This document shows positions 1 to 63,627 of a stretch of 64,000 nucleotides of DNA, piece after piece (the first letter of the stretch is position 1; each line of letters begins with the position of its first letter). The notes below the pieces were generated by a model. It worked only from the letters and a program-made list of their open reading frames with translations, was not told the DNA's origin and did no database searches. This stretch comes from Cenococcum geophilum (lineage: Eukaryota): assembly GCA_050273025.1 (NCBI GenBank), contig CP158635.1:4092001-4156000 (forward strand), in the 5' to 3' direction. Both the position numbers and the translations under genes were made by a program.

Positions 1-240
1 TTTGTACAATAATTAATAAGATTAAAGCCTTATTAATTATATCCTAATCTAGTTATTTTTAAAAGACCTAGGTATCTATTTCTATTGTTTAACCTAAAGA
101 CTCTGCTTTAATATATAGTTGCTAAAGTTTTTTAAGTATCTCTAATTGTATTAGGCTAGTATCTTTTTTAACCTAAAGTAGATGTTTTAAATTAAGATGC
201 TTTTAAAAATTACTAGTAACTAGGCTACTATATGGCAATT
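1..240. mobile_element. AT-rich, RIP-like degenerate repeat edge
   Basis: Very AT-rich, TpA-rich, few CpA/TpG, no ORFs; same texture as 60-64 kb. Family not identifiable. Confidence 0.6.
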
Positions 241-328
241 CTTGTGGATAGTGAATGCAGTAGAGAATATGATTTTGACCTAAATATTCTGGCTCCGTGC
301 CAAGCGCCGTATGAGCATGGGCCTATGT

Positions 329-600
329 TGTAACGGCTGTTCGGGCCCTTATTGGGCGAGTTAAGGCCGAATTAACGGTAGTTGAAGGCGTAAGAAGAGA
401 TGATTCTGCTTTAGAATCCATATTTGTACGATAGGGTAAAGGGAAGGTAAAAGCTGAGAATTTTTCTAGCGGTGAGGAAGTAGGGATAATATTTGTAATC
501 CATATCGATAAGATCCATATCGATAAGATCCATATCGATAATGGATCGATAAGATGGACGATAAGAGAATGGAAAGCCAGCCTGCACACGTCTTGCCTCA
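329..600. mobile_element. Possible solo LTR containing a CCATATCGATAAGAT tandem repeat
   Basis: TG(taac)...CA ends; about three tandem 15-bp units at ~500-545; flanks TATGT/TGTGC differ by two transitions, so the TSD is imperfect. Confidence 0.35.
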
Positions 601-1559
601 TGTGCTTCGCTGAAACATTTCGCTACTCTAAGCTGCTGCTTTCCGGCTTGGATATACAAAGAATCCCCATAGCCCCTTGTTAGTCAGTTCAGCGTTGTTG
701 GATCTGTAGGCTTGTTCTTCGTCCCCCGCCCCTGTCTAATTTTCTCCCTTCGCTACCGGATACCTTCCTGGGTGTACCGTTCTGGAAGTGAATAATACCG
801 CTCCTGTTTTGTCAGTCAGCATCTCCACCAAATAAACGTGTGGCAATTTCCAACGAACAAAGATTGCATTCGATGGAACCCATTCCTCATCAATCTAGCT
901 GTCGTAGATAGAATATTTACCGTTTATTTCCAATATCACCAGGACCTTCGCGCCGATCATGGCCACCTTGTTAGCTCTGTCAATGAGGCCGAGCTTTCAC
1001 TTACGTCTTTTATCCGTTTCGTTCTTTTCTGTTAGATTGAGATGAAGCCATCATTAGCTATTTGGAGCTGCAGTGAAAGGACAGATGTTTCCCGTGGACG
1101 GCTACAGAATGGGATTTAAAGAGAGGTTAGCTGAAATGTCCTGAATGCTGGCGGTAAACGAAGGGTTCCCAATACTATAACTAGGGTCGCCGGCGAGGCC
1201 TCTTTTCGGACTCACGAGTTGGGGCATCGTTCTGGGTCATTTATGGGAGTTTGTTTGGGGACACTGCTAGGGCTCCGCGGATCCAGTTTGGAAACCAACG
1301 CCCAGAAATTCTATGGGAGATAGGCCCCACATGAGTGTTTGACACATAGAGAGCACAGAGCGTTTCTATCAGCGGAACAGATTCTAAGTGTAAGAAATGC
1401 AAGAATTATAGAGCGAGGCGGTTGTGGTTACGGTACGGGGATGAAACGAGTTCTAAAAAATGACCTGGAGATATATGCTTCACAAATTCCACCCTAAAAA
1501 TGAAACGTCAAGTCCAATATTCTGCAGACCAGCCGCCCTGTTCCCTTGTGGTAGTGATT

Positions 1560-4500
1560 CAGATATAGCCACGGCGTTTATCGGTCTTCAAGGACCGTCT
1601 CAGTAGTTTGCGCGCCAAGAGGCTTAAACGGGGGGACAGTCTCGGTGCATACAGTAAGGCATCTACTAAGGCGTGCCTGGCATTGCGATATCCGTTGTCG
1701 AATCCGCCGTCGAGTCTGTCGTTGAATCCGATGAGGAATCTGTTGTCATCTTGATTTTCAGCTCCCTCATCGACCAAACATCTGCAGAGCGGGGATGTCG
1801 ACGTCGCTGAGGATGATATGGCCGTATTTTGGGATCGTAATCATGAACTGTTGCTGCGTAATGTAGGAAGGTTGTCGTCTCGGTAAAGCCACGCTCAGTC
1901 TGAGAGTGGAGGGTACAGTGAATAGCGGCATCGTTAGTCATGCGCTTGAAGTGCACGTCTATCAGATGACGCCTCAGAGAATCGTTGCGCCGGAGCTTGC
2001 ATGGGCGGCGGCCGGAATGGATGCAAAGGCCTAGACAGATGATGCAAACATCAACCGGACATTTGACCATGCTGGGGCTAAGGGGTGAATCCTCATGCTT
2101 CAGTTTATCATTAGTATCATCCTCCTTGTTCCAGTTAACTATCATTCCCCAACGGTTAGGCTCCCGGAGCCTGCAAAGCGTCGTCATATCCTTCATAACT
2201 TGAATCCGTCTCGCGGGAGCTAGATCTCCTTCCAATATCTCGGCCTCCGGACCATAGAACGCTTCCACGATACGGGCTCGTTCCGGAAACACGTATTCAG
2301 GAATCGGAGGATTCTGGTCTTCATCCATATGTTCACTGTCCGACAAATCTGCATCTGGGTTGTCCACAAGTTGGTCGATCTGCTTGTCGACTTCGATTGT
2401 CGGCATGGTATCGTAGTACTCCTCCCTCATCTTCTCCTTGGCTTCCTGACGGAGCGTTCTCCTTACTTTCTCCAGCTTCTTACAGACCTCGTCGTGCTTC
2501 CAATAAAGCTCCGGATACTAGTTCTAAGCTGCTTCGATCGTACCCGCTAATGATTATATCTCGTCCCTTAACCCCAATCTCTCCTTCCTCAGCTCGGCAA
2601 CACGAGGCATACGGTAAATAGCCTCTAGTTGCTCATCGCTAAGGTAGGTCGGTGCTAAAGGATCTCGCTTGCTTTTCCATGCCTCTCGGCATAAAGCCGC
2701 CTGCGATGGCTGGAGCAAGACGACATGCTGAAGACCGCCGATGAAATTGGACTAGTAATGTTTCTCAAAGACCACACTCTCTAACTGACCGAGAGCTCCC
2801 CTGCGTTCAGCTTCGGCGAAATGACCTGCGAGACATGGAAAACATTAGTATTAGAGTTAGAAATCGCGGTAGCGGGAACGTGAAGGCTCTGCTTCGACAC
2901 CCGAATGGTAGATGGTAAAGAAAAAAAGAGAAGGAACACCTACGATTTACCTCATTTGCAGCTCAGCGCCTAAAATTGTAGTAATTTAGCAGATCCTCAT
3001 ACCCCAAACCTTCTCTAGTGTGTTTGAGTGCCAGATTGCTCGAATCGTAGGTCATCGGTAGGGTCGGATCCACTTTAACGCCGTACGGAGGCTGCTTTAT
3101 GCGCCGGAGGACTGGAAGTTTCAGTTTATCTTTCTTCCACCTGAGAGGTAAGCTAGTTGAACGTTTGGAAACGCGGAACTTCCAGATAAGATCCGGCGTT
3201 AAACGCTCGTTTTAGAACGCGTTATCACGGAATGCCATGGTGATGATATGTAGGATGGGGCAGAACGTCAGCTGGTAGTTGCGATGCATAAAGAACCTTG
3301 TCCTGTTGAATAATACATGAGCAAAATCCCATACTATAATCTAAATTCGACATGGGAGGCAAAATCTTACCCGTCTGTACCTTCTGCCCTTCCCTTTAAA
3401 TTTATGAAGTTGATGATCGCACAAAGCATGTCTCTACCCCATCTGGATTTCGAAGGTAGAAGAGCTCGATGTCTTCCCACAAGACCGTCTTCGGCGTGTC
3501 ATGGATAAAAGCATACTTGAGAAGGTCACTCTTGAATGCCTCGTTCCGCTTCCATCCTCGTGTTGTAGAAGTGGTTGGCGGATCTTGGCCTTGGCTTAAG
3601 GTGCCATCCACCGATTTGGCGCTACTCGTAGACTGAGCTGCTAGGAGCTGAGGCAGAAGTACACCAGGTCGGGTCCCGGTAATAGAAGACCAGGGCATGA
3701 CCGTGGACTGCTGGGCGAGCATGTTTCCAAATTGGAAGAAAAGGAGTACATCCAATGGTATCGTTGGAAAAGGCTATACTCCTCAACAGTCAGGGTATTC
3801 TTCTTTTTGGTACGCCCGGAGATTTTGCGTTCAGCCGGAAAGACATGCTCAAGGAACCATTCTGTCATCAGTTGAACATTCATAGAGATAGTAACTTAGA
3901 GTTATGACTGGGCAAGGGAAAGTTCGTCTGATCTGTTGGAGGATGTGATTTCTCATTGAACGGCGAGCGAACAATGACTTTATTAATTCGCTCATGTCTC
4001 TATTTGCTTCGACGCCAATAGCACTGTAAGTAGTTAGTGTCTAGAATATCGTATACTTTCGGCAAGCGCTCTTTCTTCTCCAAAAATTGGTATTGTAGTT
4101 AAATCTCTAAATTGTGATGGGCGATCATAAAACCGCAAACTGTTTGGGTATCAGGCCGTTTTTCAGATATCCGGTTCACAGACCAGAGTTTAAAGCAGGC
4201 TTTAAAGCTCCCATCAGCCTCATGATGAGCCGACGATATGGTTTCTATGCTCCTCTGGGCATCTCCAGGGCCGTGATTTGCAGTCATGGTCCTCTAGAGG
4301 GTTTCGATTCTGGATTGCCCTTAGAGGTGGAAGTAGATTGGAGCAGGGGTTAAAGCAAGACGGTAGCTACAGAGAACGGCTCAGCTGGCGCTGTAGAGAG
4401 CAGACCTACCCAACTAGCCAACAGTGAAGAACTTGTGGCCATAGAGTACGAGGCTAGTTCCACTGAAAGAGTGCCGAGCTTGCCTGCCTTTGGGGATGCG

Positions 4501-4560
4501 CGGAGCATTATAATAGCCGCCAGCCCCAAGTTTTGGAGGCTTTCTATGGAGTTCATAGGA
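1560..4560 (-). pseudogene. DUF3435 tyrosine recombinase (Starship captain-like), disrupted by stops and frameshifts
   Basis: Manual minus-strand translation: SITGTRPGVLL (~3660-3690); LKGRAEGTDG|TRFFMHRNYQLTFCPILHIITMAFRDNAF (intron ~3303-3370); LPLRWKKD; YYNFRR*AANEVN (intron ~2826-2943); ALGQLESVVFEKHY*; RDPLAPTDL; REEYYDTMPTIEVDKQIDQL; C-terminal Cys/His region CIICLG...LRRHLIDVH. Start position approximate. Confidence 0.85.
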
Positions 4561-4800
4561 CAGAAAAGTTTCTGGTAAGCTTCACCTCACGTTGATTGCT
4601 GTAAAAGTACTTCTTGGCTTGCTTTCAAGCGCACACGTAGTGATCCTTAGTCACACCTCTATACGAGTCTCGCGTCGGCCCTGTTGGAAATTCAGTTCAA
4701 AATCAACCCAAAATCAAGCGTTCAACTTGACCTTTCATCACCCAGATGTAAGTTCTATGCCTAGTCATACCTTCGCCATGCAACCATCGCAAGCTTGCTC

Positions 4801-5765
4801 CTAAACTGCCACCTTGACCGGACAATCGTTCTGCACCTCTACCTTCACTACTTCTCCGATCAACTTCTCCTCACCTCCTTCACGTTGCAAAAAGCCTGCC
4901 TCTTCCCACGTCCGCTGAGCCGCCTCCATCAGATTTGTCTGTTCAGCCTCGGTAAGCGGGATCTCGCGGCCTTTCCGCCTCTGCCGACTCTCAGGCGTCT
5001 CAATCAACGTAGCATTATCGATGCTCTCCGGAGTCGCATCATCAAAGGCGTACGAGCGGAACTCGCAATTCGCCCAGCCGGTCCCTAGCATCCTCGTTAG
5101 CGCGCACACGAACTCCCAACCCCTCAGCCGATCCAGCGCAACAAAAAGTAGCGAGCAGAAAGAGACTGAGGAAGAGAGGGGGGGCGCCAGTTGCCTTCTA
5201 GCGGCACTCCCCATTCCGCGCGGTATTTACCGGTGAACTTGGCATGGTCGCTCCAGTCCTTAGTCAGGTAGTGCAGCATGCCTCCGTGCGTGACGACGGC
5301 GATGCTGCGCTCCTCGCGCGCCAGCAGGAACCTCCGCGCCGCCCGCGCCCGCGCCATGATGTTCTCGGCCGTCGGGGCGTAGATGCCGGTTTTCTCGTGC
5401 CAGCCGGGTGTCACGAGGCTGAGGTCGACGGGCTGGTCGCTAAACTCCCGCTGCAGCTCTGCGAGCGGCGAGCCCGTGTCGCAGGGCAGGTCGCTGATTT
5501 CTTGCAGCCAGGGCAGCGCGATGATTTTTAGATTCTTGTGCTGCTCGAGGAGCGGGCGGAAGGTTAGGAGCGCCGTGTAGAGGGTTCGCTTGATGGGCGA
5601 GGCGACGATGAGGTCGATGGAGGAAAGAGCCGGGAAGGATTGGCTTAGGTCGCGACATTGCTGCTCTCCTAATGGCGTGAGGGTTGGGTCGGGCATGGAG
5701 TGGTTGGCCACGCAGAGGTTGTGGTAGCCCTGTGCGTGGCGGATGAGGTGGATTTGCGGCGGCAT
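4801..5765 (-). CDS. Histidine phosphatase / phosphoglycerate mutase-like protein (2 exons, intron 5085-5230)
   Basis: HLIRHAQGYHN motif (RHG-like), SPIKRTLYT, VVTHGG; splicing joins KFTG to TGWANCEFRS. Confidence 0.9.
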
Positions 5766-6266
5766 CTTGGTGGTCTGGAGAGAAAGTCAAGACAGCCTGT
5801 AGAGAATATCAAAATTGGTGGAGGTGCTGCGAAGGGTTAGTAGCACCGACTGTGGGGTTTCTGGGCGAGCTTTATAGGGAAGTGCAGTCTAAAAGATGTA
5901 GGTTGATAGGTGGCGCGCATTATAGGTCTTTTTGTACGTCCTGAGAGTTAAGTGACTCGATTGCGATTGTTTAGAATATTTCATGCTGCACGAACCGATC
6001 AGGACATGAGATCCGCGGTTTCCCTAATCGGCAATTCGGTGCGGGCTCGGCATACCTTCCCGTTACGGACTGCGAATCCGGACGTTGCCCCTCATTTGAC
6101 CTGTCGTGGGGAAACGTGGACGACGTTTTGGGGACGACGAAAGGTACGGCGCCGGATATCGGAAGCGATCGTGTCTGCTTTGGGGTTTTCAGGTAGGTGC
6201 TGGGCCTCTTAGCGTTGGCCTTACTCTGCTGCTCAATTGAATGCGTTGTTGACTTGGGAGGACGGT

Positions 6267-6391
6267 GCAAAAATGAATTTATCTTTCCTTTTTGGGACTA
6301 GTGGGTACCCCCCATAAGGTCGGCAACCTTATGGGCACCCTATGGGGGGAAAGCCGCTAGTCCCAAAAAGGAAGAGAGAAACCACTTTTGC
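6267..6391. repeat. About 125-bp nested palindrome (MITE-like foldback)
   Basis: Perfect arms TTCCTTTTTGGGACTAG (6285-6301) / CTAGTCCCAAAAAGGAA (6357-6373), imperfect outward extension, and an inner hairpin CCCATAAGGT..ACCTTATGGG. Confidence 0.75.
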
Positions 6392-6490
6392 TGTCTTCTG
6401 TATGTATTCCCACGATTGAGTAGGGTGGACGAATCAGTGAAGTGTTAGGATCCAAGTTTTTGGGTGGTTTTAATAGCATTTCTATATAAG

Positions 6491-6724
6491 TGTAACGGGC
6501 TCTCCCAAAAGGTACATATTAGATGAGATATAGTCGGACAGATAAGGTTTCACCAAGGAGACATGGTCAGACAGATAAGGGGTGAAAGTTTCACTAGTGT
6601 CTCAGAAGGATCATAAAAGAAACCGGTTCTCCTCTAGAGAAGAACCAGCGATTAGTCTCTAAATAGAAGAGGTCACAAAGCGGTTGTCCTTCGAGCAGGT
6701 CGGAAGTCTTACTGGCCTCTTACA
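6491..6724. mobile_element. Solo LTR (234 bp)
   Basis: TGTAA...TTACA termini with perfect 5-bp TSD ATAAG (6486-6490 / 6725-6729). Confidence 0.85.
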
Positions 6725-7837
6725 ATAAGACTTGAGGACAGGAAGGAAAGGCATAGAAGATTCTTTGGCTTTAGTCACCGAGCTGTGCTAAATAGCCTTC
6801 GACTCTATGTCGTTAGATTCACGATTTCAGACCATTGTGATGGTTAATTTGATGATTGAAACTTGGTGTTTACTACCAGTGTTCACAAAAGTTGGTGTTC
6901 CGAAACTCTGCACACGGGCCACATTCGCATGGACTCTATCTATGCAAGGGATAATAACATTTGGTTGGCAGCTGTGGTGACACACCTTCTATCACGTGCG
7001 GCTGGGTTTGTCGTAATCACCACCGTAAACGGCAAGCACGTAGTCGGCCGGGGTTTGTTACTTCTACTTAACAAATGATGATGTGCTTTAAGAGTATAGA
7101 AGCCATAATACGAAGTTCTCTTGAACTACGAGCAGCATTCCAGGCAGGAAATTGTGTCCGAAAAAACGTACAGAGTAATGCTGATACAGCTGATCATTAA
7201 AGGAAGCGTATTGATGACATCTAGGCTCGTTCAGCTAGAATGGGTTTCGGCCTTACCTACAGTTTGTTTTGGTTATCTGGTTGCTTTTGCTTCATTGCGA
7301 CTCTGGTCTCACCTCATCTCTAGATTGCCTAAGCAAAGGTTCTCCTTCATGATTGCGCAGTTGGACATCAGTTCAGCTTTGTGGACACGATATACGAATG
7401 CCTCGGATTGCGGGTCTTCTCTCTTCCGGTAAAAGGTGGTGGAATCTCTCGAGTTTCGGGACCGTGTCCAAGATCTCTCGGCCCAGCCAGGGTGGTAGGA
7501 TTGGCGTCAGGGATCCGCAGATGTGGCTGAGGGAACTGCACCGCCTCTGTAAGCGCTTGTTGATCTTGGCGATCAAACGGCATAATTTCATGCCATTTTA
7601 AGTAAGCATGACTCGTTTTAGCGTATTCCTGCCTATTTTAGGTTATCGTATTTGTGGCTTTAGAGCTAAAAATAATGGGGTTGCATGATCATCAGCAGGG
7701 CCACGACACAACAAGCTAGTGCCATCAACGTCACAGGATCCGGTTTGTCGAGGCCCTGGCCTTCCTTTATATTCCCTTGCGACCTATACTTACCACCTTC
7801 ATTTATCTAGAGTAGCAATTTAGCATTTTGAACTATC

Positions 7838-9995
7838 ATGAAGACATCTTCTATATTCAACCATTTTTTAAGTGCATCAATATTAGTGATTGAAGCTAGT
7901 AGTAGGCATTCTCCCGAGGTTCCGAAAGACACGCGACCATTAACTGACTTGATCCAGCATCCGCCATAACCCGACGAGAACCTATAATAGATGGAATTTC
8001 TTCACTCAATCTCGCTACTTGGAAACGTGCAAGTCCGGAGGCTCCAAATGGCTATACGCCTGCTTCAGTAAATTGTCCATCGACTCGCCCGAGTATTCGC
8101 GATGCTTCGTCACTTTCAGATCAGGAGACGGCATGGCTGGAGAAAAGGAGGAATAACACTGTCACACCTATGCGCGAGCTCCTTGTGCGCTTGAACATTA
8201 CTGGGTTTGATGCAGCTGGCTTTTTTGACAGCAATGGAAACAATGCATCAGCCTTGCCGAACATTGGTATCGCAGTATCTGGTGGAGGTTATCGAGCGCT
8301 GATGAACGGTGCTGGCGCTCTTGCCGCTTTCGACAGCCGTACGCCAAACTCTACAAATATCGGGCAACTTGGTGGCTTAATGCAATCTGCCACATACCTT
8401 GCGGGTCTCTCTGGTGGGGGTTGGCTGGTGGGGAGTATTTTCGTGAATAACTTCACATCTGTACAAGATATTATTAACACAAACTCGAGCTTTTCCGGCT
8501 CCCTGTGGCAATTTGGAAATTCAATTCTTGAGGGTACGTTAACTGAAAGGTTATTTCAAGGTTCGATTGACCAAGTGCTAACTTGCTACAGGCCCGGCAA
8601 CTGGTGGGATCCAGGTGCTATCCACAGTTGAGTATTATGACGATCTCTACAACACGGTAAATGGAAAGGCCAATGCTGGTTTCGACTTCAATAGCTCACT
8701 TACCGATTACTGGGGACGTGCACTGTCCCACCAGCTGGTAAATGCCTCGGACGGTGGCCCAGGTACGGCTCTGAAGAAGCCGCAAGTGCTAGTGTATTTG
8801 AATAGTTAGCTAACATGCGTTAGGATACACGTGGTCATCTATTGCGGATGATGCTGAGTTCGTGGCTGCCAATGCACCGATGCCTATTCTTGTCGCTGAC
8901 GGTCGAGCTCCTGGGGAGGTTATTATTTCTAACAACGCCACTGTGTACGAATTCAACCCGTGGGAGATAGGTAGTTTCGACCCTACAGTCTATGGATTTG
9001 CACCTATGCGCTATGTTGGTTCGAACTTCACTGCAGGCGTACTTCCCAATGATCAGAAGTGCATCGAGGGCTTCGACAACGCGGGCTTCGTAATGGGAAC
9101 CAGTTCTTCGTTGTTCAATCAGTTCATTCTCAATTTAAACACGACAACAGGTGTTCCTGACGTTGTGAAGAATGCCATTGCTAGTATTCTTACGGATCTA
9201 GGCCAAACCAGCAACGACATTGCAGACTGGACTCCGAATCCCTTCTATCACTTTCACAACGACACGAATCCGAATGCGCAGAGCAAACGTTTGACTCTTG
9301 TCGACGGTGGGGAGGATCTTCAAAATATCCCTCTGCACCCCCTGATCCAGCCCATCCGTAATGTCGATGTCATATTTGCGGTTGACTCCTCAGCGGACAC
9401 CATCTCACCGAATGCTCAGAACTGGCCTAATGGCGCTGCTTTAGTTGCAACCTACGAGCGTTCTCTTAACCAATCGATGGGGAATGGAACTGCGTTCCCC
9501 TCAATTCCAGATCAGAACACTTTCGTCAATCTGGGGCTCAACACACGCCCGACCTTCTTTGGATGCGACACTAGCAATCTTACTGGTCCTGCACCTTTGG
9601 TTGTTTACATTCCTAACCACCCATATGTCTACAACTCCAATGTATCGACCTTCACCCTATCGTATAACAACAGTGAACGTAACGCCATCATCGAGAACGG
9701 ATATGACGTCGCTACCATGGGAAACGGGACGGTGGACAAGCAATGGCCAACCTGCGTCGGCTGCGCTATCCTATCAAGGAGTTTGGACCGTACTGGGACA
9801 GCCGTGCCGGACGTCTGTAAACAGTGCTTCAGCCGGTATTGCTGGAACGGGACAGTCAACTCGACTACACCAGCGCCCTTCTTCCCGACTCTTATTTTCT
9901 CTGAGATTAAATTAACAAGTGGCGTTGAACACTTCACTCCTAATTTGTTTAGTTTAGTAGCCGTCATTGGCATATCGATGGTTTTAGTGTTGTAA
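7838..9995 (+). CDS. PLB: Lysophospholipase / phospholipase B, secreted, probably GPI-anchored (introns ~7902-7957, ~8535-8591, ~8763-8823)
   Basis: N-terminal signal-like peptide; SGGGYRA, GLSGG and LVDGGED motifs; hydrophobic C-terminal tail. Confidence 0.95.
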
Positions 9996-10578
9996 GATAG
10001 TTCTTTTAGTTGAATTTTGGCAGCCTTGTGGAGGAGTTGGTGTTCCATGGCTGGAGTTTTGGACCTGTGTGGAAGGTAGGAACATTTTGAACGACGTTAT
10101 GAGTTATATGTACGGCTCTTAGATATTGAGTGAAACTAAACAATTAGAGCGAATTTGTCAAAAGCTACACGGTATAATATGCGTGGTACAATACGTGAGT
10201 ACGTGGAGGCTTGACGGTTGACTGATAGCGTGACGCCCGCTCACGTAATGACCCGATTTGCGGAGTGGAATTCTCTTATCTTAGTAAACGACTCAAACGA
10301 CACCTGCCCCGCGCGCTGCGTTTTTTATAATTTGATTAGCAACGCAGGCCTGTCCTGCCGTCTGGCCTATGGTGCGAGTTTTGGTAAGGCTCGACTTAAA
10401 TTTTCGCAATTTTGTATAAGAGACCGTTTCTTAGTATATTTAACTACTTTAACAACATTAAATTTTAATCTAGTAAGTTAATAAAGTAAGTTATTTTAGT
10501 CTCTTCTATAATTTGATTAGATTTTTATTAAATATAAAGCTATTAGCTAGGTAAGGTTTAGGTGGATTTTATGACGTT

Positions 10579-10904
10579 TTATCCCTAACCCGTCGACTTG
10601 GGCCCGTAGCTTATCGATAAGCGCCAGCTAATTAGATTAACTAGATTCGATAGCCGTGCTCAGATATTTAAAGCCTTTGATATTACTTAATTCTTATACA
10701 ATATCTCCATGCAAGCTTATCCTTTGGAGTTAACTCGCTTAATATAAGGCTGCCGGCAGGCATCGTTCCAGCAGAACAGTATCTTGCAGATACTGTAGCC
10801 AAAATTGAGTCAATGGTTGAATTCTATATAGAGCACGCGTAGTCTTGATCCTGGTGTTCGCGCATAGACCACATACTCAACGGACCCCGACGGTTAAGGG
10901 ATAA
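10579..10904. mobile_element. MITE-like element with TTATCCCT...AGGGATAA ends
   Basis: Imperfect TIRs TTATCCCTAACCCGTCG / CGACGGTTAAGGGATAA; internal TTATCGATAAG...AGATATTTAAAGC segment shared with 60466-60540; AT-rich RIP-like flanks. Confidence 0.6.
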
Positions 10905-11109
10905 CGTTTTGCGACGTTTTGCGGTAAAATCGCGCCCAGCCGAGGCTCTATAAGTCGACCTAAATAAATTTAATAACTTACTTTTATACTATAGGGTTTT
11001 TATATAAATATTCTTAAAAGCAGCTTTAGTTATATAATCAATTAAATTTTAAAAATGCGTTATTTAGGGTAGAAGTAGGGCATTAAAAGGGGTAGAAAGA
11101 AGATACCAG

Positions 11110-11288
11110 TTATCCCTTGCACCGTTGAAATCGCGCGTGGAGTTGTAGCCTAAGCTCAGCCAATTAAACCTACTTGTTTATGGGTGGTCAGCAATTCTGT
11201 CGCAACACCAATTGGTAGTGGAGGTTTTGATGTTTTTGAGGTCGCGCACGGGCTATATCTGTACGGCTGACGACAGTGCAAGGGATAA
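11110..11288. mobile_element. Second MITE-like element with related TIRs
   Basis: Perfect 13-bp inverted arms TTATCCCTTGCAC / GTGCAAGGGATAA; possible 3-bp TSD AGT. Confidence 0.55.
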
Positions 11289-11497
11289 GTCGATCCTCCT
11301 CTATTTTCGTGCCAAAGACCCTTAGACGGCAACCGAGACAGTATTATTGGCTGACCCTAACTAGCCATAATTTGTCTGTAAAGTATACTAGTTAAGTACT
11401 AGCGAGATTTACTGTCTTGGCTTACTGAGATAAGAATTTTCGAAGTTTCTACCTTCAAAGCTATAAAAAGAACACGAACCCGCGCAAAAGCCAAGAA

Positions 11498-13234
11498 ATG
11501 GAGGCGCTAACCCTGGGAACTGCTCCCGTATTATCCACCCCCGATATCCACATATTCGAAGATACGACTCCATCAGTCGACGTGTCAAACCTCCCCCGAC
11601 TTTCAGATGAGCAGCTAGTCCTCACCTACGAGATTGAGCGGACAGTAGAAGAAATTCGGGCCAGAAAATGGCGAAGGGTAGCATTACAATTCCCAGATGA
11701 CCTGCTTCCGGATGCGCCGCGGATATATGAGTTTTTGAGACGAGGATTAAAGCGTGCTAGGGATACACACAGAATTTCTTCCAGCACGGCTGAGAAGCAA
11801 ACCTCAAGGAACAGTAATGTCACGCGGGACCTGGAAACGATCGTGGAAGCACTCAGTATATCCGGCAAGGATGAAGTAGAGGAAAAGCTTTTTATACTAG
11901 CAGATACCTCTTACGGCGCTTGTTGTGTTGATGAGGTCGCCGCAGAACACGTCGACGCTGATGTCGTGGTTCATTATGGTAGATCGTGTCTATCTCCAAC
12001 TGCAAGGTTACCGGTCATATATGTCTTTACAACTAGACCGATATCCTTAGATATGGTTTTGGAAACATTCAAGGAAACATTCATGGACAAGGATCAGAAG
12101 ATTATACTAATGGCAGATGTCCCTTACTCCAACCATATACCAGGCGTTTATGAAAAGCTGAGGGAAGAGGGCTACACGAATGTCTATGCGACATCAATCA
12201 TTCACAACCCATCTTCCCCATTACCAAATCGTACTGTTCCCGCTGACGTGAGTGAATCGAAGGATGCGCTGCGCAACTACGAGCTTTTTCACATATCAGA
12301 ACCTCCAACTTCTTTATTGCTCTCGCTCTCTTCTCGGGCAGGCGCTATTCATATATATCCAACCAACTACACTAGTTCCGACCCTCCCAAGGCTCTTCTG
12401 GCCACATCAGTCATGACTCTGCGTCGCCGTTACGCTCTCCTTACATCCCTTAGTACTGTTTCGGTATTCGGCATTCTCATAAACACACTCTCAGTAAAGA
12501 ATTACATGCACATACTGGATCATGTTAAGAAAACGATCGCGTTAGAAGGCAAGAAAAGCTACACATTTGTTGTTGGGAAAGTGAACGCGGCTAAAGTGGC
12601 AAATTTCAGCGAAGTTGAAGGTTGGGTAGTTATTGGCTGCTGGGAGAGTAGTCTAATTGAGAGCAAAGATTTCTGGAGACCTATTATAACCCCTTTTGAG
12701 CTCAGTCTGGCCCTCAAAGGCGATGCCGAAAGAGTCTGGACGGGGGAATGGACCAGTGATTTTCAGGCAATTTTGGAGAATACAGATACCTCTGCTGAGA
12801 CACGATCCAATAATGATAAGGTTGGGGAAGCACCCGGGGAAAATCAACTGGTTGATGGGGGCGACTTTGATTCAGAGGAGGAATCAGCGCCGCCGGAGTT
12901 CGATCTGCGTACTGGCCGGTATGTCTCACACTCGCGCCCTATGCGCACTTCGGCGACGCAACCCAATAGAAGGCAAGCGAGCCAGAGGGTTGGAGCCTCC
13001 GCGAATCAATCCCTAGTCAAGCGTGCCAACGGCGATATCGCCCAAGTGGGTGGAGTAGCGTCTCCTGGAGCAGAATTCTTTCGGTCTCAACGAACGTGGC
13101 AAGGCTTAGGTAGCGACTTTGACGTCTTGAATGAGGCCAACGGAGAAGCGGACACTTCTGGCGCTTCGATGGAAGAGGGCAGAAGCGGTCTCGCCAGGGG
13201 ATATGTGGTGGGAAATGATAGGTCTGAGCGGTAG
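11498..13234 (+). CDS. DPH2: Diphthamide biosynthesis protein 2
   Basis: ALQFPD, LADTSYGACCVDEVAAEH, VHYGRSCLS, VGKVNAAKVANF, C-terminal RTWQGLG and EEGRSGLARGY. Confidence 0.95.
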   Translation: MEALTLGTAPVLSTPDIHIFEDTTPSVDVSNLPRLSDEQLVLTYEIERTVEEIRARKWRRVALQFPDDLLPDAPRIYEFLRRGLKRARDTHRISSSTAEKQTSRNSNVTRDLETIVEALSISGKDEVEEKLFILADTSYGACCVDEVAAEHVDADVVVHYGRSCLSPTARLPVIYVFTTRPISLDMVLETFKETFMDKDQKIILMADVPYSNHIPGVYEKLREEGYTNVYATSIIHNPSSPLPNRTVPADVSESKDALRNYELFHISEPPTSLLLSLSSRAGAIHIYPTNYTSSDPPKALLATSVMTLRRRYALLTSLSTVSVFGILINTLSVKNYMHILDHVKKTIALEGKKSYTFVVGKVNAAKVANFSEVEGWVVIGCWESSLIESKDFWRPIITPFELSLALKGDAERVWTGEWTSDFQAILENTDTSAETRSNNDKVGEAPGENQLVDGGDFDSEEESAPPEFDLRTGRYVSHSRPMRTSATQPNRRQASQRVGASANQSLVKRANGDIAQVGGVASPGAEFFRSQRTWQGLGSDFDVLNEANGEADTSGASMEEGRSGLARGYVVGNDRSER

Positions 13235-13605
13235 ACAAAAAGGATATTTGATAGAGAAATAAGCGCGATTCACGAAGTCACGGGCTTATTGTAGCTGAAA
13301 GCGAAGCTGCAAAGAAAGGAATATGCCCATATACTGTTCCCCTATTTCTTGAAAAATTTAGGCGCCTATATTACTTTTTTCGCTTTCGGTGACTGTCATG
13401 CCACCCTTGCCAAGCGCGGCGTTTCTTCTTCGCAGGGCGCGATCAACGCCTGCACCTCGCAGGTTCTGCTAAGCGTAGGCGGAATCCAAGCACTCATTCG
13501 AGCAAGGCACACGACAAGCTGAACGCCGACGAAACCTCCAACACGCGAATTCTCTGCAATATATTGGCGCTACTGCCGCCCTCTGCATCTGCATGACTCT
13601 CTCGT

Positions 13606-16600
13606 ATGTTTCCTTGCCTACTCCATCGCGAAGACTGTCTTGAAGGGCCTGGGTTTGCTAAAAGACTCCGCCTCCAGCCAGAAGAAAGTATGAGCAGTCA
13701 GCTTCTCGCCCAAGATCTCTTCTGGGACCCAGAAATCCACCCAAAGGCGACTTCTTCGACCTCTACCGACGATGCGGCGTCTCAGCGGAAGGCCGCCAAC
13801 TCACTTGTCTCTCTTAGCCTTTTCGAAGCCGTTATAACGTCCTATCCGCCTATCCTCGAGTCCCTACTCGCCCAGATACCCACCGCATCCATATTCGATC
13901 TCTACCATACTTCTAGATATCTTCGGGAATTTCTGGAGTCCTATCCTCTGGCGTGGAAGACGCTGTCGTTCCGATTACCGCAGCCGGCCCTCGTCCTAGG
14001 CTCACCGGGGAATGAAACACCGGATGGGAGGGAGAGGCAGTCTAAGACGTATGCGCTCGATGCATTGCTAATACAAGTTGTGGTACCATTCGGAACGAGG
14101 TTGAAGAGTTTGGATTTATGCAACACAGCCGTATCCGGCGTGGCCTTGATATCAAGGGTCCTGCAACCACGGATAAGGACCTTACAACATCTTTCCGTAC
14201 GAGGCTGCAAGAACGTCTCTATCAAGTACCACGTCGTACCTTTCCTGGAACCTTATATCCAGAAAGATTCACCATGGGCTCAAAAAGGTGACTTGGCCTT
14301 GAAGAGCTTGTATACCTACCGCTGTCGACATCACCGACGGCGACCATATCTACCATCCTCGCTTATCCGGAGAGATTCCGACTCAGATCCAACACATCAG
14401 CTCATTGAGATATGCCATCAGCTAGGTATCTGGACAGACACAGCATGGTGCCCAACACCTGGTGGGAGATGTTTCCGCAGGAAAGACTACCATTCTGGAC
14501 GGGCTGGACCTGGGAACATGGAGGTTTGGGTGCCTTTTGATAGGCTATGGCGATCCGGGAACCGTATAGGCCCGGGAGAAGACAATACAGAAATTGGCCA
14601 TGCTGACGGGAGGCTTTGGGAGATCTGCGAAACCGGACAGGACGGGGAACCACTGGGGACCGAAGACGGACAATTTAAAGGAGAAGGGAAGGATATCCCG
14701 GCTCACGTTCGGAGAAGCCATCGCACTTTTGTTGAGAAGATCAAATGTGCTCAGTGCAACGATGTAATATTAGAGCGTTGCGAGCAGTGCAGTGTCCGGA
14801 TGCATTGCATGGGATGCCGGAAAACGCTGTGTGCGAGCTGCGCTTTCAATCGGCCAATACCTAGGAAGCGAACGAAGACACGACACTTCACAAGTCTAGC
14901 TTTTGGGAACAGCATACCAGTGGGTACGACAATGAGCGATTCGTCTTTATCCTCTGCATCCTTGGAGACCCAAGGCAGGAATCCCAAGTCTCCCAAGAAC
15001 AACCGCTTTTGGTGGGCTCCTGGTGCAACACGATCACCAAATCTCATGAATGAGCAGTCTAACGCCGACGATTCTTCCGATTCCGATGATGGTAATGCCA
15101 ACAATGGTGGAGTGCTCCCGGCGCCTACTGCACCTCCAAAACTTAACATGCATTGGTGTTGCCTAGAACCAATATTCTCGGGGGGTGGTGGGATAGCATT
15201 TCTTGGTCCTGGACTTGGCGGAAAAGGTGCTGACAAGATCCGGGCAGCGCCTCTACCACGCATAAAAGAATATGAAGATCCTGACTTCTCATCTCAACTT
15301 CGACCAATCGACTATGTTCGCGAGCTAAAGAATAATGGCCTCTACGAATACGTCCTAGGTGAGGACGCAGATATCCTAGCTTACTTAAAACAAGATAGTT
15401 TGGATTTGCAAGCTTCAACTTGCCCTCGAGGACTCTGCCAGGACTGCTACCGCACATTCAGGTGGAAGGTATCGTGCAGAGGCTGCAAGAAACCATTGTG
15501 CAAAGAGCATGATTTCAGAGGGCTCAAGTTGCGGAAATGCGGATTTCGAGATTTGCATGTCGAGCGAGAGTACGTGCGTAATCATTCCGAGCCACCTCAA
15601 CTCATCATCCCGGCTTTCAAGTCTGGTGCATCGAAAACTGCAGACGAGAGCGAACATAATGGGGAAAGTTCATCCTCAACAGATACAAACTCTCTAAATC
15701 TGCCGGACATAGATCTTGATCTGATCGACACAACCCCACTATCACAATCTCAAATCCTTCCGCCTACCCCTGGATCGCCAACACCCGCGCCTCCACCTAC
15801 ACCTGCCGCTGTAGACATGTCCACTTCCACGTCCCTCACCTCCCACCTTTCCAGCACCCCCGATACTCTTAACATCTCCACTCTCAACTCTAGTTACACG
15901 TTCCACCCAACACCCTCTCGACCTCGATCTTTAAGCGTCTCAGGTCTTCGCAGCCGGAACTCGTCCTCGTGGCCCAGCTCCCCTCGCAATTTGAATCCAA
16001 TATCCAACACTCTCCCTTTACCATGTACTCCGCGCCACCCCGTGCAATGGGAGGGTTGTGGAGCATATTTCTGCCAGACACCTCGCCCCATCGGAGACTC
16101 GCGACCAAGATGCCCGGCCGTGCTAAAAGAGTGCGGGGAATGTGGAGTGTTTGTTTGTGAGGTAAGTCTCCTACTTTATGCCTACCGCTGAACGCTGAAC
16201 ATAGAACCACTGACATATTCTTTCCAGGCTTGTGCATCCGCGAATCCTACATGTCCTTGCACCTTCTGCACAACACACTTCCACTGTCCACACTGCGTAG
16301 CTAAGCCTACTGTCAAGGCTCAATGTCGCATGGAAGAGGAGTTGAAGGCAAAGAAAGAGGCGGAAATCAAGGCTAAGGAGAGAATGGAACACGAGAAAGA
16401 GCAAAGGGAGCAGGCAGATCAGTTGGCGGAGACCGTGTGGGAGTTTTGGGAAGGGTTGCTGGGTGAACTTAGTGGTGGGGAAGACGAGGGAGGTTCGAAC
16501 GTAGACACGGAAGGAGAACAAACCCCCACTCAGCCCGTAGAAGCGGTTACAGGAGACGGTGATGCAGAAATGCAGTCGGACGTGGTTGCAGAAAACATTT

Positions 16601-16662
16601 TGGACACAGAGGGCTCGATGATTGACGAGATCATTGCTGAAGGCGCCCTCGCGACAGTATGA
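13606..16662 (+). CDS. Conserved fungal protein with F-box-like N-terminus and Cys-rich Zn-binding segments (intron 16162-16227)
   Basis: 861-aa ORF spliced in frame to the 16330-16662 ORF; ILESLLAQIP..SIFDLYHTSR..WKTL, LRR-like LKSLDL/LQHLSVRGC, many CxxC pairs. Confidence 0.75.
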
Positions 16663-18240
16663 TCGTTTGCTTCAGCAGTTACCTAAAGATGGCTCACATA
16701 TGGTTTCGAACAGGCGCAAATTGTTCTTCGTTAGCTTGTTCAAGAGGGGTATTCATGGGAGGATTCGGAGGCGTCTTTTCATCAGTTATGCCCAGGATTT
16801 TGGTTTTATAGGGAGGCAGCAGCATGGCTTATCTGGATTGTTTTATCTACTGGCAGATTTTGTTTTGGGATGTTGTAAACTTTATAGCTTGATGCAGCCT
16901 AGCATGGGTGATGAAACCTAGCGATGTTCAGCGTTAGCTCTTTGAAAGATGAGAAATTGCATTATGTTCAAAGGTCTACTTCGGCATTCAAATTTCATAC
17001 GTAGGCGAAGTAAAACATGTTGATAGAAAGGATCGGTATAAGATGCTGAAGTTCGGATACTCAGTGTGTTAGAGAGTTCATTACCCGTGCCGCTGTCGCG
17101 ATCCACTTACCTCGTTACCGAGGTAAGTGCCGGCCAGCTCAACGAGTAGAGCCCACCTCAACGTCAGATTTGCCAAGACTATGATTTTAAAGCCGCAGAA
17201 CTCTACCAAAAAGTCGAATGTTTAGAATTTTGTGGTGTAGTACTGGTTTCTTAATAGAAGGAGTCTCTATATACAATAGGTCAAGGCTCTGGCCGCCTTA
17301 TGGCGTCCTAAAGAAGCTGCTTCGCAGTTGCCCGTTCCTTCCTCAGTAATACACGTGCAGCTTTTAGAGCCTCCTCCTGCTCGCGCTTTTGTACAATTGA
17401 CCTTACATTTGCTGCATATATAACCCCTCCCTTCTATACAACCTTTCTATTACTTTTTTGGCGTTGCCAACGAGCTCTAGCAACTACTTGTGTATTTATA
17501 AGCTCGCGTTTAGCATAGTCGTACATGCATATTTACCAAACTACCTCTTACGAATTTCATAAAGATATCCATAGCCTCCTTATTATCTTTGTATACCTCC
17601 TAAGCTAGCAGTAAAACTTTCTTCCAAACTATATGCAAAGATCTTAGTGTATATGGTGTAGATGGCTCACAAGGTAGTGGAGGGGGGGGGTAGTAGGACG
17701 CGCCTCGCGCATAGAATTAAGGATAATTTAAGGGTTATAAGGAACGAGGCCTGCCTGCCAGAAGGCTGATTTAATTATACTCAATTTAAATGTTTAGCGA
17801 CGAATTAATTTAATTACATAGAGGAATTTAACTTTATTAAAGTTGGTGCAGCCCGTCCGTGTTACTTACTCAACTGCCTCACTATAGTGGTGTTTATACG
17901 GCTAAAATACAACAATATTAAAAGGCTGTAAAAGGTGGCTTGTATGCGGAGGTAAGGTAAATAGTATAATCTTTTAATTGTCGTAATACTTAATAAACTC
18001 CTTTATAAGGTAAGAGCCGTGGCTATTAAAAATTAGGAGCCTATATGCACCTAGCTAGCGCTAAGAGCTATACGCGTTAAAGTACTTAAGCTAATTAAAG
18101 GCTAATTTATTATTTAAATAGCCTATTTCTAATAGGCCTAATAAATAGTAGTTAGGAAGGGCTAAATTCTTAAACCACTAGTAGAGGAACTATGCGCCCA
18201 CAAGTATAATCATAGGTAGTAGATTAACTCTGTCACTACT

Positions 18241-18452
18241 TGTTAGCGACTCAGTCAATCGAGGCACGAGCACGGCAAGAGGGGCGCGCAAGCCTGTACG
18301 ATTGGTAGTCTATAAACGAGGATCTAAAGCTAGAGAAAGGAAAGGAGAAGAAGAGCAGCGCTGGTCGAAGTAGGGTTCTTTTTATGCGGTCTTCTAGTCA
18401 CGTGACCGCGAAGTTCTGCCAAGTTCTGCCAGGTTCTGCCAGTGCCGTAACA
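18241..18452. mobile_element. Solo LTR nested in the transposase
   Basis: TGTTA...TAACA termini; TSD CTACT (18236-18240 / 18453-18457). Confidence 0.9.
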
Positions 18453-18466
18453 CTACTTATCGTTTC

Positions 18467-18638
18467 TGTCTGAACAATTTCGAACAGGAATTTATGGTCG
18501 CAATCACGTGAGCTAAGCGAGCTCAGGAAACCCCTTAAATTGCACCTCTTCATGTACGATTAGAAAACGATCATACAACCTAACAAGACTACGATTACGA
18601 CATTACGTGATATTAGCCTTAGGTCATGTGTTCCGACA
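18467..18638. mobile_element. Second, unrelated solo LTR nested in the transposase
   Basis: TGTCTGAACA...TGTTCCGACA termini; TSD GTTTC (18462-18466 / 18639-18643). Confidence 0.9.
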
Positions 18639-20397
18639 GTTTCTATTATAGTAACTAGCTCGCGATTTATATCCGTAGAGATATAAGCTTTTTAATAAGG
18701 CTTCCTTATAATAATCTACTGGTTTTTACTAATACTAACGCGGAATCCTAACTTATTAAAGTTATATATATCCGTGGGCATAACTATATACTTAATTATA
18801 ACATCGCGGTATTAATAAAACCACGCCTTAATATCCTTCGGCTCGTATACCGCTGTACGCTTAAGCTCTATTATCTTCTGCCTACGCTTATAGTACTCTA
18901 GGTAGCGGCCAAGCTAGCGTTTAACAAAGTAAGAGCTAATAGGAGGTGGTAGCTAATCTAGATTTTCGTTAGCTTAATCTAAGATCTAATTTACTATAAA
19001 ACGTATTATTAGTAGTTAAGCGGCGGTATGTAAGGAATCTAAGCGATTAATATAGCTACAAAGAGCAAGATCTTAATTGTTAGTAAGCCTTCTACTTACT
19101 GCAGGCCTCTTATAACGCGATTAACGTCCTTTCCACTAAGCGCGGAGGCGTGATTCAGGAACACCGTGTTGGCGCGCAGCCTCTGCAACATTGGGCTTGG
19201 TAGACTCTTGGAGTTCTTTAAGAGCCTCCTAGATCTTATTTTCGACGCGAATATACTCAGTAGTTATGGCGTTGATAATATATAATAAGAATATTAATAG
19301 TATTTGGGTGTCTTGGCAAATCTGACGTTGAGGTGGGCTCTACTCGTTGAGCTGGCCGGCACTTACCTCGGTAACGAGGTAAGTGGATCGCGACAGCGGC
19401 ACGGGTACTGTTATCTCATAAATCAGACCCTTCGTGGATCGTTGGTGCGCACGGATGAACTGCTCCTTATTAACTGACGAATCCTCTAAGAGCTTATCTC
19501 CCACGCTGGTTTACGTCCACGCATATCGATAAGGATTTAACCAATCACAGGCTCTCGTTCAAATGAGAGCTTAGCGTTGATACTAATGTTCATAGGCTTG
19601 GCGCCAAGTTGTAGACGCCAGCGTGGGAGGGGATAGTCTTAGCTTTAGTAGTAGCTAAAAGTTCTAGAACCTTATAATATTGACAAATCTTATATATTTT
19701 TCTAAGTTTAATTGTTTTTTAAGGACAGCGGTAGAGGACGCCCCCCACTGATTGGGTTTAGTTCCTTCCTGATCAAGTTAGAATATCATGTGAATTTAAA
19801 TTGTTTATCTGCATCGCGAAAATTAAACTGCTAAAATATAACCCTTATGACTGTAACACCTCGATTGCGCAGTACTCTATGAGGCGCCGCGTGAACTTAT
19901 TTGGGTGCTGCTACCTCTGCTTGATGTCTACAGACTGCCTCTGCGAGCACGCCCACGCCCACGCGTAGTACACCCGGTATTCTGTTCAAATTCTGAGACT
20001 CGCGGTGAGTCGATGTATCAACGCGAACAGAGCCAGCCAGGCGGCCGCGGCGGCGCTCAACAGTTAGAGGCTGGGGGGGGGATAAGGTAAGACAAATGCG
20101 AGGCATGGGCGCGCGACGGTCACACACTGATGCACATGTCAGGAAGGAACTAAACTCAATCAGTGGGGGGTTCTGCAGATACATCGAAAGAAGCCTCGGA
20201 ACACATTTTCTTTATCACTAATCTTTGACGTGCACAACAGACTGAAATTGGCGAAGCAGCGCTCATTGCCCACCACCTTATTCTTTTTGAGGATCATTCG
20301 TAGACGTTATTGCGAGTTTCCAACATTTTCTCGCCAACATTCAACGAACCAATATTAAACCACTTTTGGGCTCGGGAGTCTAGCAACTCTCCCGGGC

Positions 20398-21366
20398 ATG
20401 TCAGCGCCACTCACAGATCAGTTATCTTTGCGGGAGATCTCTCCTGGAGAATTTGAATCAAACTGCAATCCGAGGAGGATGGGAAATACTGCCAACATAG
20501 CTTACGGGGGTTGGACATTGGCTATTGCTGCTAATGCCGCTTATCAGTCGGCTCCACCAAGCTATCACCTCTACTCCATGCTTGGGCATTTTCTTGGGCC
20601 TGCTTTAACGGATCGGAAATTGTTTTGCACGGTTCGAAAAATACGCGATACTCGCACTTTTGCGACGCGGCAGGTGGAGGTTAGCCAAGCCCAAGATGAT
20701 GGTTCCAGGCGACTTGCACTTTTCGTCGTCGCAGATTTCCAGGTCAGAGAGAAAGCGTCTCTATTGACCTACTCAGCGCCACCGTCTAAGCCCTACAGCA
20801 ACTTCGAAAACAGCCCAACAATGGAATCCAGACTGCAATCAATGATACAAGCCAAAATTATCCCGCAAAAGGTTGCAGATGTGCATAATGTAGTTTTCAG
20901 TCTACTCGCGCAATTCTTCGATCAGAGACCCTGTCCAGAGAGCATTTCCACACAAAACCTCAAAGGCATGGCCAAGCATGTCAAGACGGCCCAGGATCAT
21001 CTACCTTTGACATCGAAGACGTCTGCGGATTGGTTCAGAGTCAAAGATACTTTGGAAACCGAAGCGCAACAAATTCCCACGCTTGCTTTTGCAATGGATG
21101 CCGCAATCCCCCTCGTGCCTCTTACACACAGCCACAAATTCCTAGACGATGCAGCCGCTTGCTCGTCTCTGGATTTCGCGTTGAGAATCTTTAGAAACGA
21201 TGTAAACTTAAATGGCTGGCATCTGAGAGAGCAAGCAACCGTAACAGGTGCAGAAGGCAGGACATACACAGAAGCTCGACTGTGGGATCGAGACGGAAAC
21301 ATGGTTGCGAGCATGACCCAGCAGTGCATCATGCGGCCGAAACCTGGCGTAAAATCAAGTCTTTAA
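20398..21366 (+). CDS. Acyl-CoA thioesterase II (TesB-like double hotdog)
   Basis: AYGGWTLA, GHFLGPA, VRKIRDTRTFATRQV, SSLDFALRIF, GRTYTEARLWDRDGNMVASMTQQ; intronless. Confidence 0.9.
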   Translation: MSAPLTDQLSLREISPGEFESNCNPRRMGNTANIAYGGWTLAIAANAAYQSAPPSYHLYSMLGHFLGPALTDRKLFCTVRKIRDTRTFATRQVEVSQAQDDGSRRLALFVVADFQVREKASLLTYSAPPSKPYSNFENSPTMESRLQSMIQAKIIPQKVADVHNVVFSLLAQFFDQRPCPESISTQNLKGMAKHVKTAQDHLPLTSKTSADWFRVKDTLETEAQQIPTLAFAMDAAIPLVPLTHSHKFLDDAAACSSLDFALRIFRNDVNLNGWHLREQATVTGAEGRTYTEARLWDRDGNMVASMTQQCIMRPKPGVKSSL

Positions 21367-26835: not shown

Positions 26836-26851
26836 TGAACCCTTCCACTCG

Positions 26852-27235
26852 TCAAGTGACTGGTTGTAAAGTGAGTGGTTTGTGTTCTGAATTTCTTGGC
26901 GTTCGCTGCTCTTTAGGCCGTGGGCGGCACGCAGATGCCTCTTTAAATTATCCTTACGAGAGGCTCCTGTAAACGTACATCCAGGCGATTTGCAGTAAAA
27001 TTTCGGCTCGATACCTTGATGTTTTGATCTGTGCCGATCAAGGTCGGGCTTTCGCCCAAATGCTTGGGGGCATTTATCGCAGCGGTACGGTCGACGGTGA
27101 GTATTATAATGTCGGCTACGGTAAAAAGAGCATTAGTTTTTTTAGCTTTTCCAGCGTAGCACCGGTGAATTACTTCAGTGTTCCTCGTGTAGGGAAGGTT
27201 TTGTTGCAGAATTCGCACTCGTGAAGCCCTTCCAT
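26852..27235 (-). CDS. Three C2H2 zinc fingers directly upstream of the ankyrin ORF (intron 27116-27173); probable frameshifted N-terminus of that gene
   Basis: Spliced translation: MEGLHECEFCNKTFPTRGTLNRHYNTHRRPYRCDKCPQAFGRKPDLDRHRSKHQGIEPKFYCKSPGCTFTGASRKDNLKRHLRAAH...QPVT*. Absent from the ORF track. Confidence 0.8.
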
Positions 27236-59420: not shown

Positions 59421-60050
59421 TCAGTATTTCCCCTTGGTGGCTCCAATGACCATGTTTTCCACCTTCGCATCATAAATTTTCGAGGGCGTGTGGATGTTTG
59501 CTTTGTACCTTTTCCCAACCTGGACGCCTTCTAACTCTGCATCTGGTTCCATACAGCCTTCCCTGCGAGGGAGTGTAGAGTCTACGAATTTACCATCGAC
59601 ATCTTTAAGACCGCACATGTGTTTATCCCTTGCACCGTTGAACGCATCCAATAACTTGTGGACCGAGCTTGACCAATCAATTAACTGCATTAGTTGGCGG
59701 CATGCTTGATTTGGCGATTGGCGAGACGTAGAAGGTGCTGCTCCTTGAAACGCAACATGCGGTCAAGAGAGAACCCAGAATAGATGATTTTGAATGCTAA
59801 AGCATCGCATGCTTTCATTAAAACTAGTTCCTTGTAGATCAGGTTTTGAAGTTCTCCTAGTATCTTGAAGAAGGTAAATGGTGATTTAAATATCTGGAGT
59901 TGGCTCATTTTCGTTGTCAAAATTTCAATATCTTTGCAGTATTTGTCGACATTCACGACGGGACTGTTAATATCTATGCCTAAGTAGTCAATGTGCATAG
60001 CTTTGAATCAGACGAATGCACTTCGCTATATATTATCATTACTTATGTCT
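59421..60050 (-). pseudogene. Decayed hypothetical gene with an F-box-like segment
   Basis: FTFFKILGELQNLIYKELV...LRLANRQIKHAA resembles the fungal 'FLxLPxELRxxIY...LLxxNRQI' pattern; split across frames and adjacent to the RIP zone. Confidence 0.4.
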
Positions 60051-60099
60051 ATTCCGTGATATTACGTTACGTTATCTTTATATACTACCCTCTGAAATA

Positions 60100-62090: not shown

Positions 62091-62092
62091 TA

Positions 62093-63625: not shown

Positions 63626-63627
63626 TA

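Follow-up and report, generated by a model that had tools for sequence, protein, structure and literature searches.

In the published accounts of Starship giant transposons, the captain, a DUF3435 tyrosine recombinase with a conserved catalytic pentad (R-K-H-R-Y), is described as always being the first gene of the element, and one such element, Hephaestus, inserts at TTAC(N7)A (PMC10104507). The captain of another, Wallaby, is likely a pseudogene; "derelict" or "degraded" are the terms proposed for inactive copies, and a survey with starfish listed 559 elements with predicted boundaries alongside 10,212 "solo" recombinase genes, many of which are perhaps pseudogenes (PMC11162782). Here we describe a captain relic in Cenococcum geophilum, located near the left end of a 64,000-nucleotide stretch of contig CP158635.1 (positions 4,092,001 to 4,156,000 of the forward strand, hereafter the window, with positions counted from its first letter). 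Positions 711-4004 of this window very probably represent an inactive, fixed remnant of a Starship-like giant transposon, composed of a truncated captain and about 1 kb of element-internal sequence that includes a small gene.

The relic resembles Starship captains such as HhpA of Hephaestus (PMC10104507, PMC11162782) in its Pfam domain, in the order of its motifs, and in its 40-56% identity to DUF3435 proteins of Eurotiales. Unlike these captains, it is not open and does not include the N-terminal ~110 codons, and, in contrast to Starship elements, no upstream terminus, no direct or terminal inverted repeats and no presence/absence polymorphism were found at the relic, with neither element end in the window. 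With derelict Starships such as Wallaby it shares a captain interrupted by many premature stops and an element unable to move alone, but Wallaby still has a definable element, whereas this locus retains just a 3.3-kb fragment with neither end recognisable. A scan of metagenome contigs, which yielded nine captain loci, provided two further points of comparison. One (L001) represents this locus in a different haplotype, with L001 1730-9100 matching window 10972-3607 at 98.6% identity and L001 9098-11938 matching window 3477-585 at 92.3%. The other (L002) lies on a 101-kb contig and represents a related element, collinear with window 732-3973 across captain, spacer and small gene, with three intron positions alike and DNA identities of 70% in the captain and 70-77% in the downstream pieces. 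L002 differs in having kept its N-terminal exons and ~500 bp upstream of them, in having far fewer lesions, and in having an open small gene. On this basis, the fragment in the window was divided into three parts:

1578-4004, minus strand: 5'-truncated pseudogene of a DUF3435 (Starship-captain type) tyrosine recombinase, from Pfam PF11917, protein relatives and L002 DNA
1277-1678, minus strand: non-coding spacer and 3' region of the element, from blastn against L002
711-1056, minus strand: decayed small two-exon gene (MADS-box-like as a lead) directly downstream of the captain, from L002 homology

The identity of the captain was established from its surviving pieces. When 11 stop-to-stop fragments were scanned against Pfam, three matched PF11917 (DUF3435), all above the gathering cut-off of 25.8 bits:

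1666-2517, minus strand: E 4.2e-9, 36.3 bits, profile positions 319-417
2554-2751, minus strand: E 3.4e-6, 26.7 bits, profile positions 243-303
2963-3211, minus strand: E 6.4e-13, 48.9 bits, profile positions 125-202

A search for longer proteins with the C-terminal fragment returned 16 relatives at 39-46% identity, and the relatives of the captain as a whole (P0001-P0016, at the 40-56% given above) are FluG-domain / DUF3435 proteins from Aspergillus, Penicillium, and Talaromyces. Full-length relatives used as tblastn queries aligned to collinear minus-strand pieces running from 3974 to 1768, at 42-63% identity each. Along these pieces, the motif TGTRPG (within 3740-3438, minus strand), YNFRR (ending at 2966), LGQ...VFEKHY (ending at 2755) and a Cys/His tail (CPVDVCIICLGL...RRHLIDVHF...FLHYAATVH) are all kept, and in this order; the segments with the first three motifs are those which we take to hold the catalytic residues. 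The profile matches, the protein relatives and a closer copy at 85% identity (P0168) thus bear out an earlier sequence-only reading of this DNA, which had proposed a decayed DUF3435 captain with its motif order and C-terminal Cys/His region preserved, and had named the DUF3435 profile as one way to check it.

The same reading had described several stops and frameshifts, and here the picture is more nuanced. Three apparent frame changes are introns, at positions where L002 also has introns and the relatives are contiguous:

Intron A, 3923-3857, minus strand: GTATGC...GCAG in L002 at this place, donor lost in the window
Intron B, 3370-3303, minus strand: GTAAGA...AACAG, position conserved in L002, relatives contiguous (ADG|TKFF)
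Intron C, 2943-2826, minus strand: GTAGGT...TCGCAG with branch-like CTAAC/TACTAAT, conserved in L002, relatives contiguous (NEVNR|NFT)

In the alignment to L002, intron A has lost 5-6 bases including the GT, which are still present in L001. The remaining lesions, including six stops and two frameshifts, are real, with the in-frame stops located as follows:

3212-3214, minus strand: TAA
2963-2965, minus strand: TGA, where relatives have W
2752-2754, minus strand: TAG, where relatives have Q
2554-2556, minus strand: TAA
2524-2526 and 2518-2520, minus strand: TAG at both

The frameshifts lie at ~3741 and ~3436, and an 88-bp deletion relative to L002, near 1673-1678, moves the C-terminal tail (1679-1578) into another frame. 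With six internal stops, two frameshifts, this deletion, a lost splice donor and no complete open reading frame (ORF), the captain gene, as judged from its predicted product, cannot be functional.

Closer copies of the captain were recovered by a search for proteins of near-equal length, with P0168 at 85% identity and P0169 and P0170 at 64%. Short ORFs from Logan or JGI are 83-86% identical and have frame breaks of their own. Overall, closer relatives span 58-86% identity. P0168 reads Q-D-Q at residues where the captain in the window reads stop-N-stop. Among the closest full-length captains, clusters at 90% identity (those of P0004 and P0012) joined Aspergillus sydowii to Penicillium rubens/chrysogenum, and seven Penicillium species to each other. 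These cross-genus clusters behave as a mobile family and fit a horizontal spread within Eurotiales. A full-text literature search for six accession numbers or locus tags of the closest relatives found no mention of them, although supplements might list such captains, and therefore provides no tie to named Starships.

Downstream of the captain, the similarity to L002 continues through the spacer, in which window 1277-1374 matches L002 11452-11369 (70%) and window 1471-1678 matches L002 11134-10928 (77%) by blastn, and into the small gene, whose region is 77% identical in DNA to L002 11590-12071. The L002 gene is open and consists of two exons (11752-11979 and ~11994-12098), and its intact ORFs align by tblastn to the window at 65% (E 1.8e-22) and 70% (E 1.6e-9) identity, corresponding to exons at ~1056-847 and ~809-711. 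The copy in the window is interrupted by stops at 997-999, seen in the window only, and at 895-897 and 753-755, both in common with L001. Hence both the captain and the small MADS-box-like gene are, on their predicted reading frames, pseudogenes. The label of the small gene is a lead only and does not imply family membership: Pfam returned nothing at E<=10 for the small downstream ORFs, and the open L002 ORF did not match SRF-TF (PF00319). In the ESM Atlas, the L002 small protein was nearest to Ascomycota clusters named "MADS-box domain-containing protein" (score 0.89, 206 shared features), with the structure rows falling under the bar. A MADS-box transcription factor is among the cargo reported for an A. 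fumigatus Starship (10.1101/2024.06.28.601215). No copy of the small gene was found downstream of the captain in L003, L004, L007, L008, and L009, of which L004 and L008 hold just ~340-440 bp of downstream sequence. Between the window and L002, its DNA is better conserved than that of the captain (77% vs 70%), and the L002 captain has stops.

Because a second decayed gene and further element sequence follow as in L002, the relic is more than a lone captain. This bears on the alternative that the locus derives from a "solo" captain-type element which never had cargo, i.e. a small transposon, recombinase-only or Crypton-like, now decayed. Such an origin would suit the large excess of "solo" recombinase genes over bounded elements (10,212 vs 559; PMC11162782) and the mere ~3.3 kb of recognisable element sequence (711-4004). 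However, the downstream gene belongs to the same element and stands in the same order as in L002, and L002 itself goes on beyond it with genes for a subtilase and an ankyrin-repeat protein, which are candidate cargo. We thus regard a cargo-free origin as very improbable.

On the left, homology to the element ends at ~711-732, and the collinear block is closed by a repeat:

1-584, no strand assigned: AT-rich high-copy repeat at the left end of the collinear block, from GC content (0.34 in 1-500) and read depth

Read depth in bin 1-400 reached 117-171 in three of four sequencing runs and 12 in the fourth (X11), relative to ~5-27 in the single-copy flank, and the assembled contigs of all four runs begin at 556-585. 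L001 is aligned down to window 585 and then continues for 2.1 kb in AT-rich DNA that has no match in the window or in L002. The leftward element proposed in the sequence-only reading is therefore upheld for ~1 kb beyond the captain, through the second decayed gene, and not further, as homology ends at ~711, before the repeat at 585.

On the right, the homology between captain and L002 breaks off abruptly at about 3973-4004, with recognisable captain sequence ending at ~3974-4004 and not at ~4560, and none of the N-terminal exons of L002 are found beyond this point. Two features occupy the adjacent sequence:

4005-4800, no strand assigned: single-copy, non-captain spacer, from no Pfam match, no significant protein match, shuffle-level DNA score and single-copy depth
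4801-5765, minus strand: intact two-exon histidine-phosphatase (PGM-family) gene, from PF00300 (E 1.1e-18, 68 bits)

The L002 captain has two further N-terminal exons (~390 bp of coding sequence) preceded by ~500 bp of upstream sequence. Conservation within the protein is highest in these exons, which share 72% and 63% identity with P0002 of Aspergillus. When window 3975-4800 was aligned locally with L002 7600-8611 at the DNA level, the score was 12, the same as the average over 200 shuffles (12.0, maximum 16), whereas the adjacent segment, used as a control, scored 91 against a shuffle value of 9.6. A low-stringency tblastn search for the captain N-terminus in 4005-4800 returned only non-significant matches, the best with E 0.64 at 4092-4009, and the fragments 4099-4293 and 4350-4586 had neither a Pfam match nor a significant protein match. 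A captain N-terminus within 4005-4800 was rejected on these grounds (tblastn E>=0.64, DNA alignment at the level of shuffles). From the comparison with L002, the relic is without its first ~110 codons and without the 5' terminus of the element, and about 800 bp of unrelated sequence separate the end of the captain from the phosphatase stop codon, instead of the ~240 bp estimated from the letters alone. The phosphatase gene has exons at 5765-5229 and 5085-4804 with no stops, an intron at ~5228-5086 and its stop codon at 4801-4803; tblastn with P0052, P0065, and P0081 covered 5765-5229 and 5085-4885. The best named relatives of its ORF are only ~64% identical and come from various Pezizomycotina.

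This right edge was where the sequence-only reading had placed an element boundary, the relic being in that case the leading gene of a Starship, large and possibly derelict, that extends left of the window, with its 5' boundary between the captain and the phosphatase gene. The captain indeed points left, away from a block of housekeeping genes farther right in the window (lysophospholipase, diphthamide synthesis, Dbf4, ketopantoate hydroxymethyltransferase, and Sir2), element-internal homology extends ~1 kb past it, and in published elements no more than 7 kb, and usually no more than 2 kb, separate the captain start from the upstream boundary (PMC11162782). Yet the original 5' boundary is no longer at this spacer, because the captain N-terminus and an upstream terminus of the L002 type are missing. 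The homology to L002 also stops at ~711, the following 2.1 kb of L001 are unlike L002 cargo, neither blastn nor tblastx matched the flanks of L002 (1-7716 upstream and 12100-20840 downstream) to any part of the 64-kb window, and none of five other haplotypes is without the relic (see below). We consequently consider a Starship boundary beside the phosphatase gene to be improbable.

The GTAA/TTAC sites that had been offered as candidate junctions carry no such signal. The window contains 128 matches to TTAC(N7)A, relative to 123.7 expected, and 29 of 100 shuffles contain at least as many; the motif was rejected as a junction signal on account of this chance frequency, and the single site in the spacer (4593-4604) is without weight. 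No 5S rDNA or tRNA target site was found in 1-12000 (no Rfam hit at gathering score, no ARAGORN gene), and a repeat search on 1-7000 revealed no terminal repeats, just short chance-like matches. For the related element, a candidate end comes from comparing two copies. L005 represents the same place as L002 (99.98%), and L006, at 99.3% identity to L002, ceases to resemble it upstream of L002:7717 (L006 927), ~506 bp before the captain ATG, where the sequence reads TCACAAG(T/G)CAAATCTGAGTACCTG. This point may be the 5' terminus of the related element, or may reflect a transposon insertion in one copy.

We next consider the distribution of the relic among haplotypes. Twenty runs hold part of window 1-10000, and reads of four of them (X5, X9, X11, and X13) were compared with the window. 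In all four, depth over 800-6000 is single-copy, and contigs span both the right edge of the relic and the phosphatase stop codon:

X13: 585-6320, with 342 substitutions and 101 gap letters
X11: 3096-5794
X9: 3784-4724 and 4709-5921
X5: 3901-5658

None of the loose ends and joints listed fell within 3900-4900. In L001, the relic is joined to the same phosphatase gene as in the window, so that an empty site was seen in none of the five other haplotypes (X5, X9, X11, X13, and L001). Fixed synteny with no empty-site allele, which the sequence-only reading had itself named as evidence against a boundary, is thus what all five display. Several lesions are common to the window and L001, namely the stops at 2524-2526/2518-2520, both frameshifts, the 88-bp deletion, the truncation and two small-gene stops, and therefore the fragment was already dead in their common ancestor. 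Others are private, with four captain stops and the lost intron A donor confined to the window, and deletions of 129, 38, and 19 bp confined to L001. The relic diverges from the window by ~3-6% in X9, X11, and X13, and neighbouring genes by ~1-3.6%, a difference that fits unconstrained decay.

A conserved position could also be expected of a domesticated, still functional host gene derived from a recombinase, with synteny held by selection, and the relic is indeed in the same place in all haplotypes examined. Its six internal stops, two frameshifts, deletions and missing N-terminus, the different additional lesions in L001, and a divergence above that of neighbouring genes nevertheless already contradict domestication, to which we assign hardly any probability.

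Comparison of the window with L001 also revealed a step in divergence at ~5200, inside the phosphatase gene, with ~0.3% to the right (5201-12099) and 2-8% to the left (585-5200). Left of this step, transitions between the two are enriched at CpG (56 of 145, 39%, vs a background of 22%), while CpA accounts for 21% of those in 585-5200 (background 25%), with directions split 75 to 70 between the lineages. Classic CpA-type repeat-induced point mutation is thus unsupported as a cause of decay, the changes being transition-rich but with CpG preferred and an even direction. The step itself could correspond to a recombinant or introgressed block, or to methylation-linked hypermutation next to repeats. 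A broader and rather unlikely proposal is that the small gene could be a conserved second gene (regulator or helper) of the captain lineage, and that the relic and its repeat neighbourhood could make up a haplotype block that is methylated, fast-mutating or introgressed.

Taken together, we assign a probability of about 0.82 to the reading of window 711-4004 as a Starship-like element fragment that is fixed and inactive. Several points weigh against this interpretation. The comparison covers five other haplotypes only, and one of the runs outside it that have smaller word shares (X16-X24) could hold an empty site. A less decayed captain copy (P0168) exists somewhere, and may be an ortholog or a paralog. 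A larger derelict element may lie beyond the repeat at 1-584, left of base 1. The truncation would follow from a single related element at ~70% DNA identity, whose captain has stops itself and is hence not a proven active reference, and a weak, non-significant protein resemblance extends as far as 4092 (E 0.64). Under the favoured interpretation, these lineages would descend from an ancestor in which a Starship-like element had inserted at this position; its 5' terminus and the start of the captain would then have been lost by deletion or rearrangement, and the remainder would have decayed neutrally, with repeat insertions at 585 now bounding or interrupting the fragment on the left. The fragment, as far as its predicted genes tell, is without function today and unable to move on its own.

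Beyond the relic, the window contains several other repeats. A very high-copy short repeat at 6260-6800 reached a depth of 1100-3300 in bin 6401-6800, relative to ~5-29 in its flanks, in all four runs; with imperfect inverted arms (6267-6313 and 6345-6391) and numerous breaks and joints of contigs, it resembles a miniature inverted-repeat transposable element. A dispersed repeat with a depth of 80-290 lies at 10300-11400, between the lysophospholipase and diphthamide-synthesis genes, and L001 carries an extra ~594-bp insert (L001 1136-1729) at window ~10965-10972, partly similar to window 19755-19964. The right end of the window (60000-64000) is AT-rich (GC 0.30-0.34), like the left end, and is probably a degenerate repeat. 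Finally, 24202-27132 on the minus strand is a 976-aa open frame of ankyrin repeats, whose DNA has a 102-bp periodicity, with TTACTCCTCGCA at 24751, 24853, 24955, 25057, and 25159.

By itself, the relic matters little, as pseudogenised "solo" captains are common. It does illustrate that the presence of a DUF3435 relic beside core genes is not enough to mark a transposon boundary. Within this fungal lineage, it serves as a dated marker of an old Starship-like insertion, and it leads to L002, a related element in a less decayed state, in which the ends and the small second gene could be studied.

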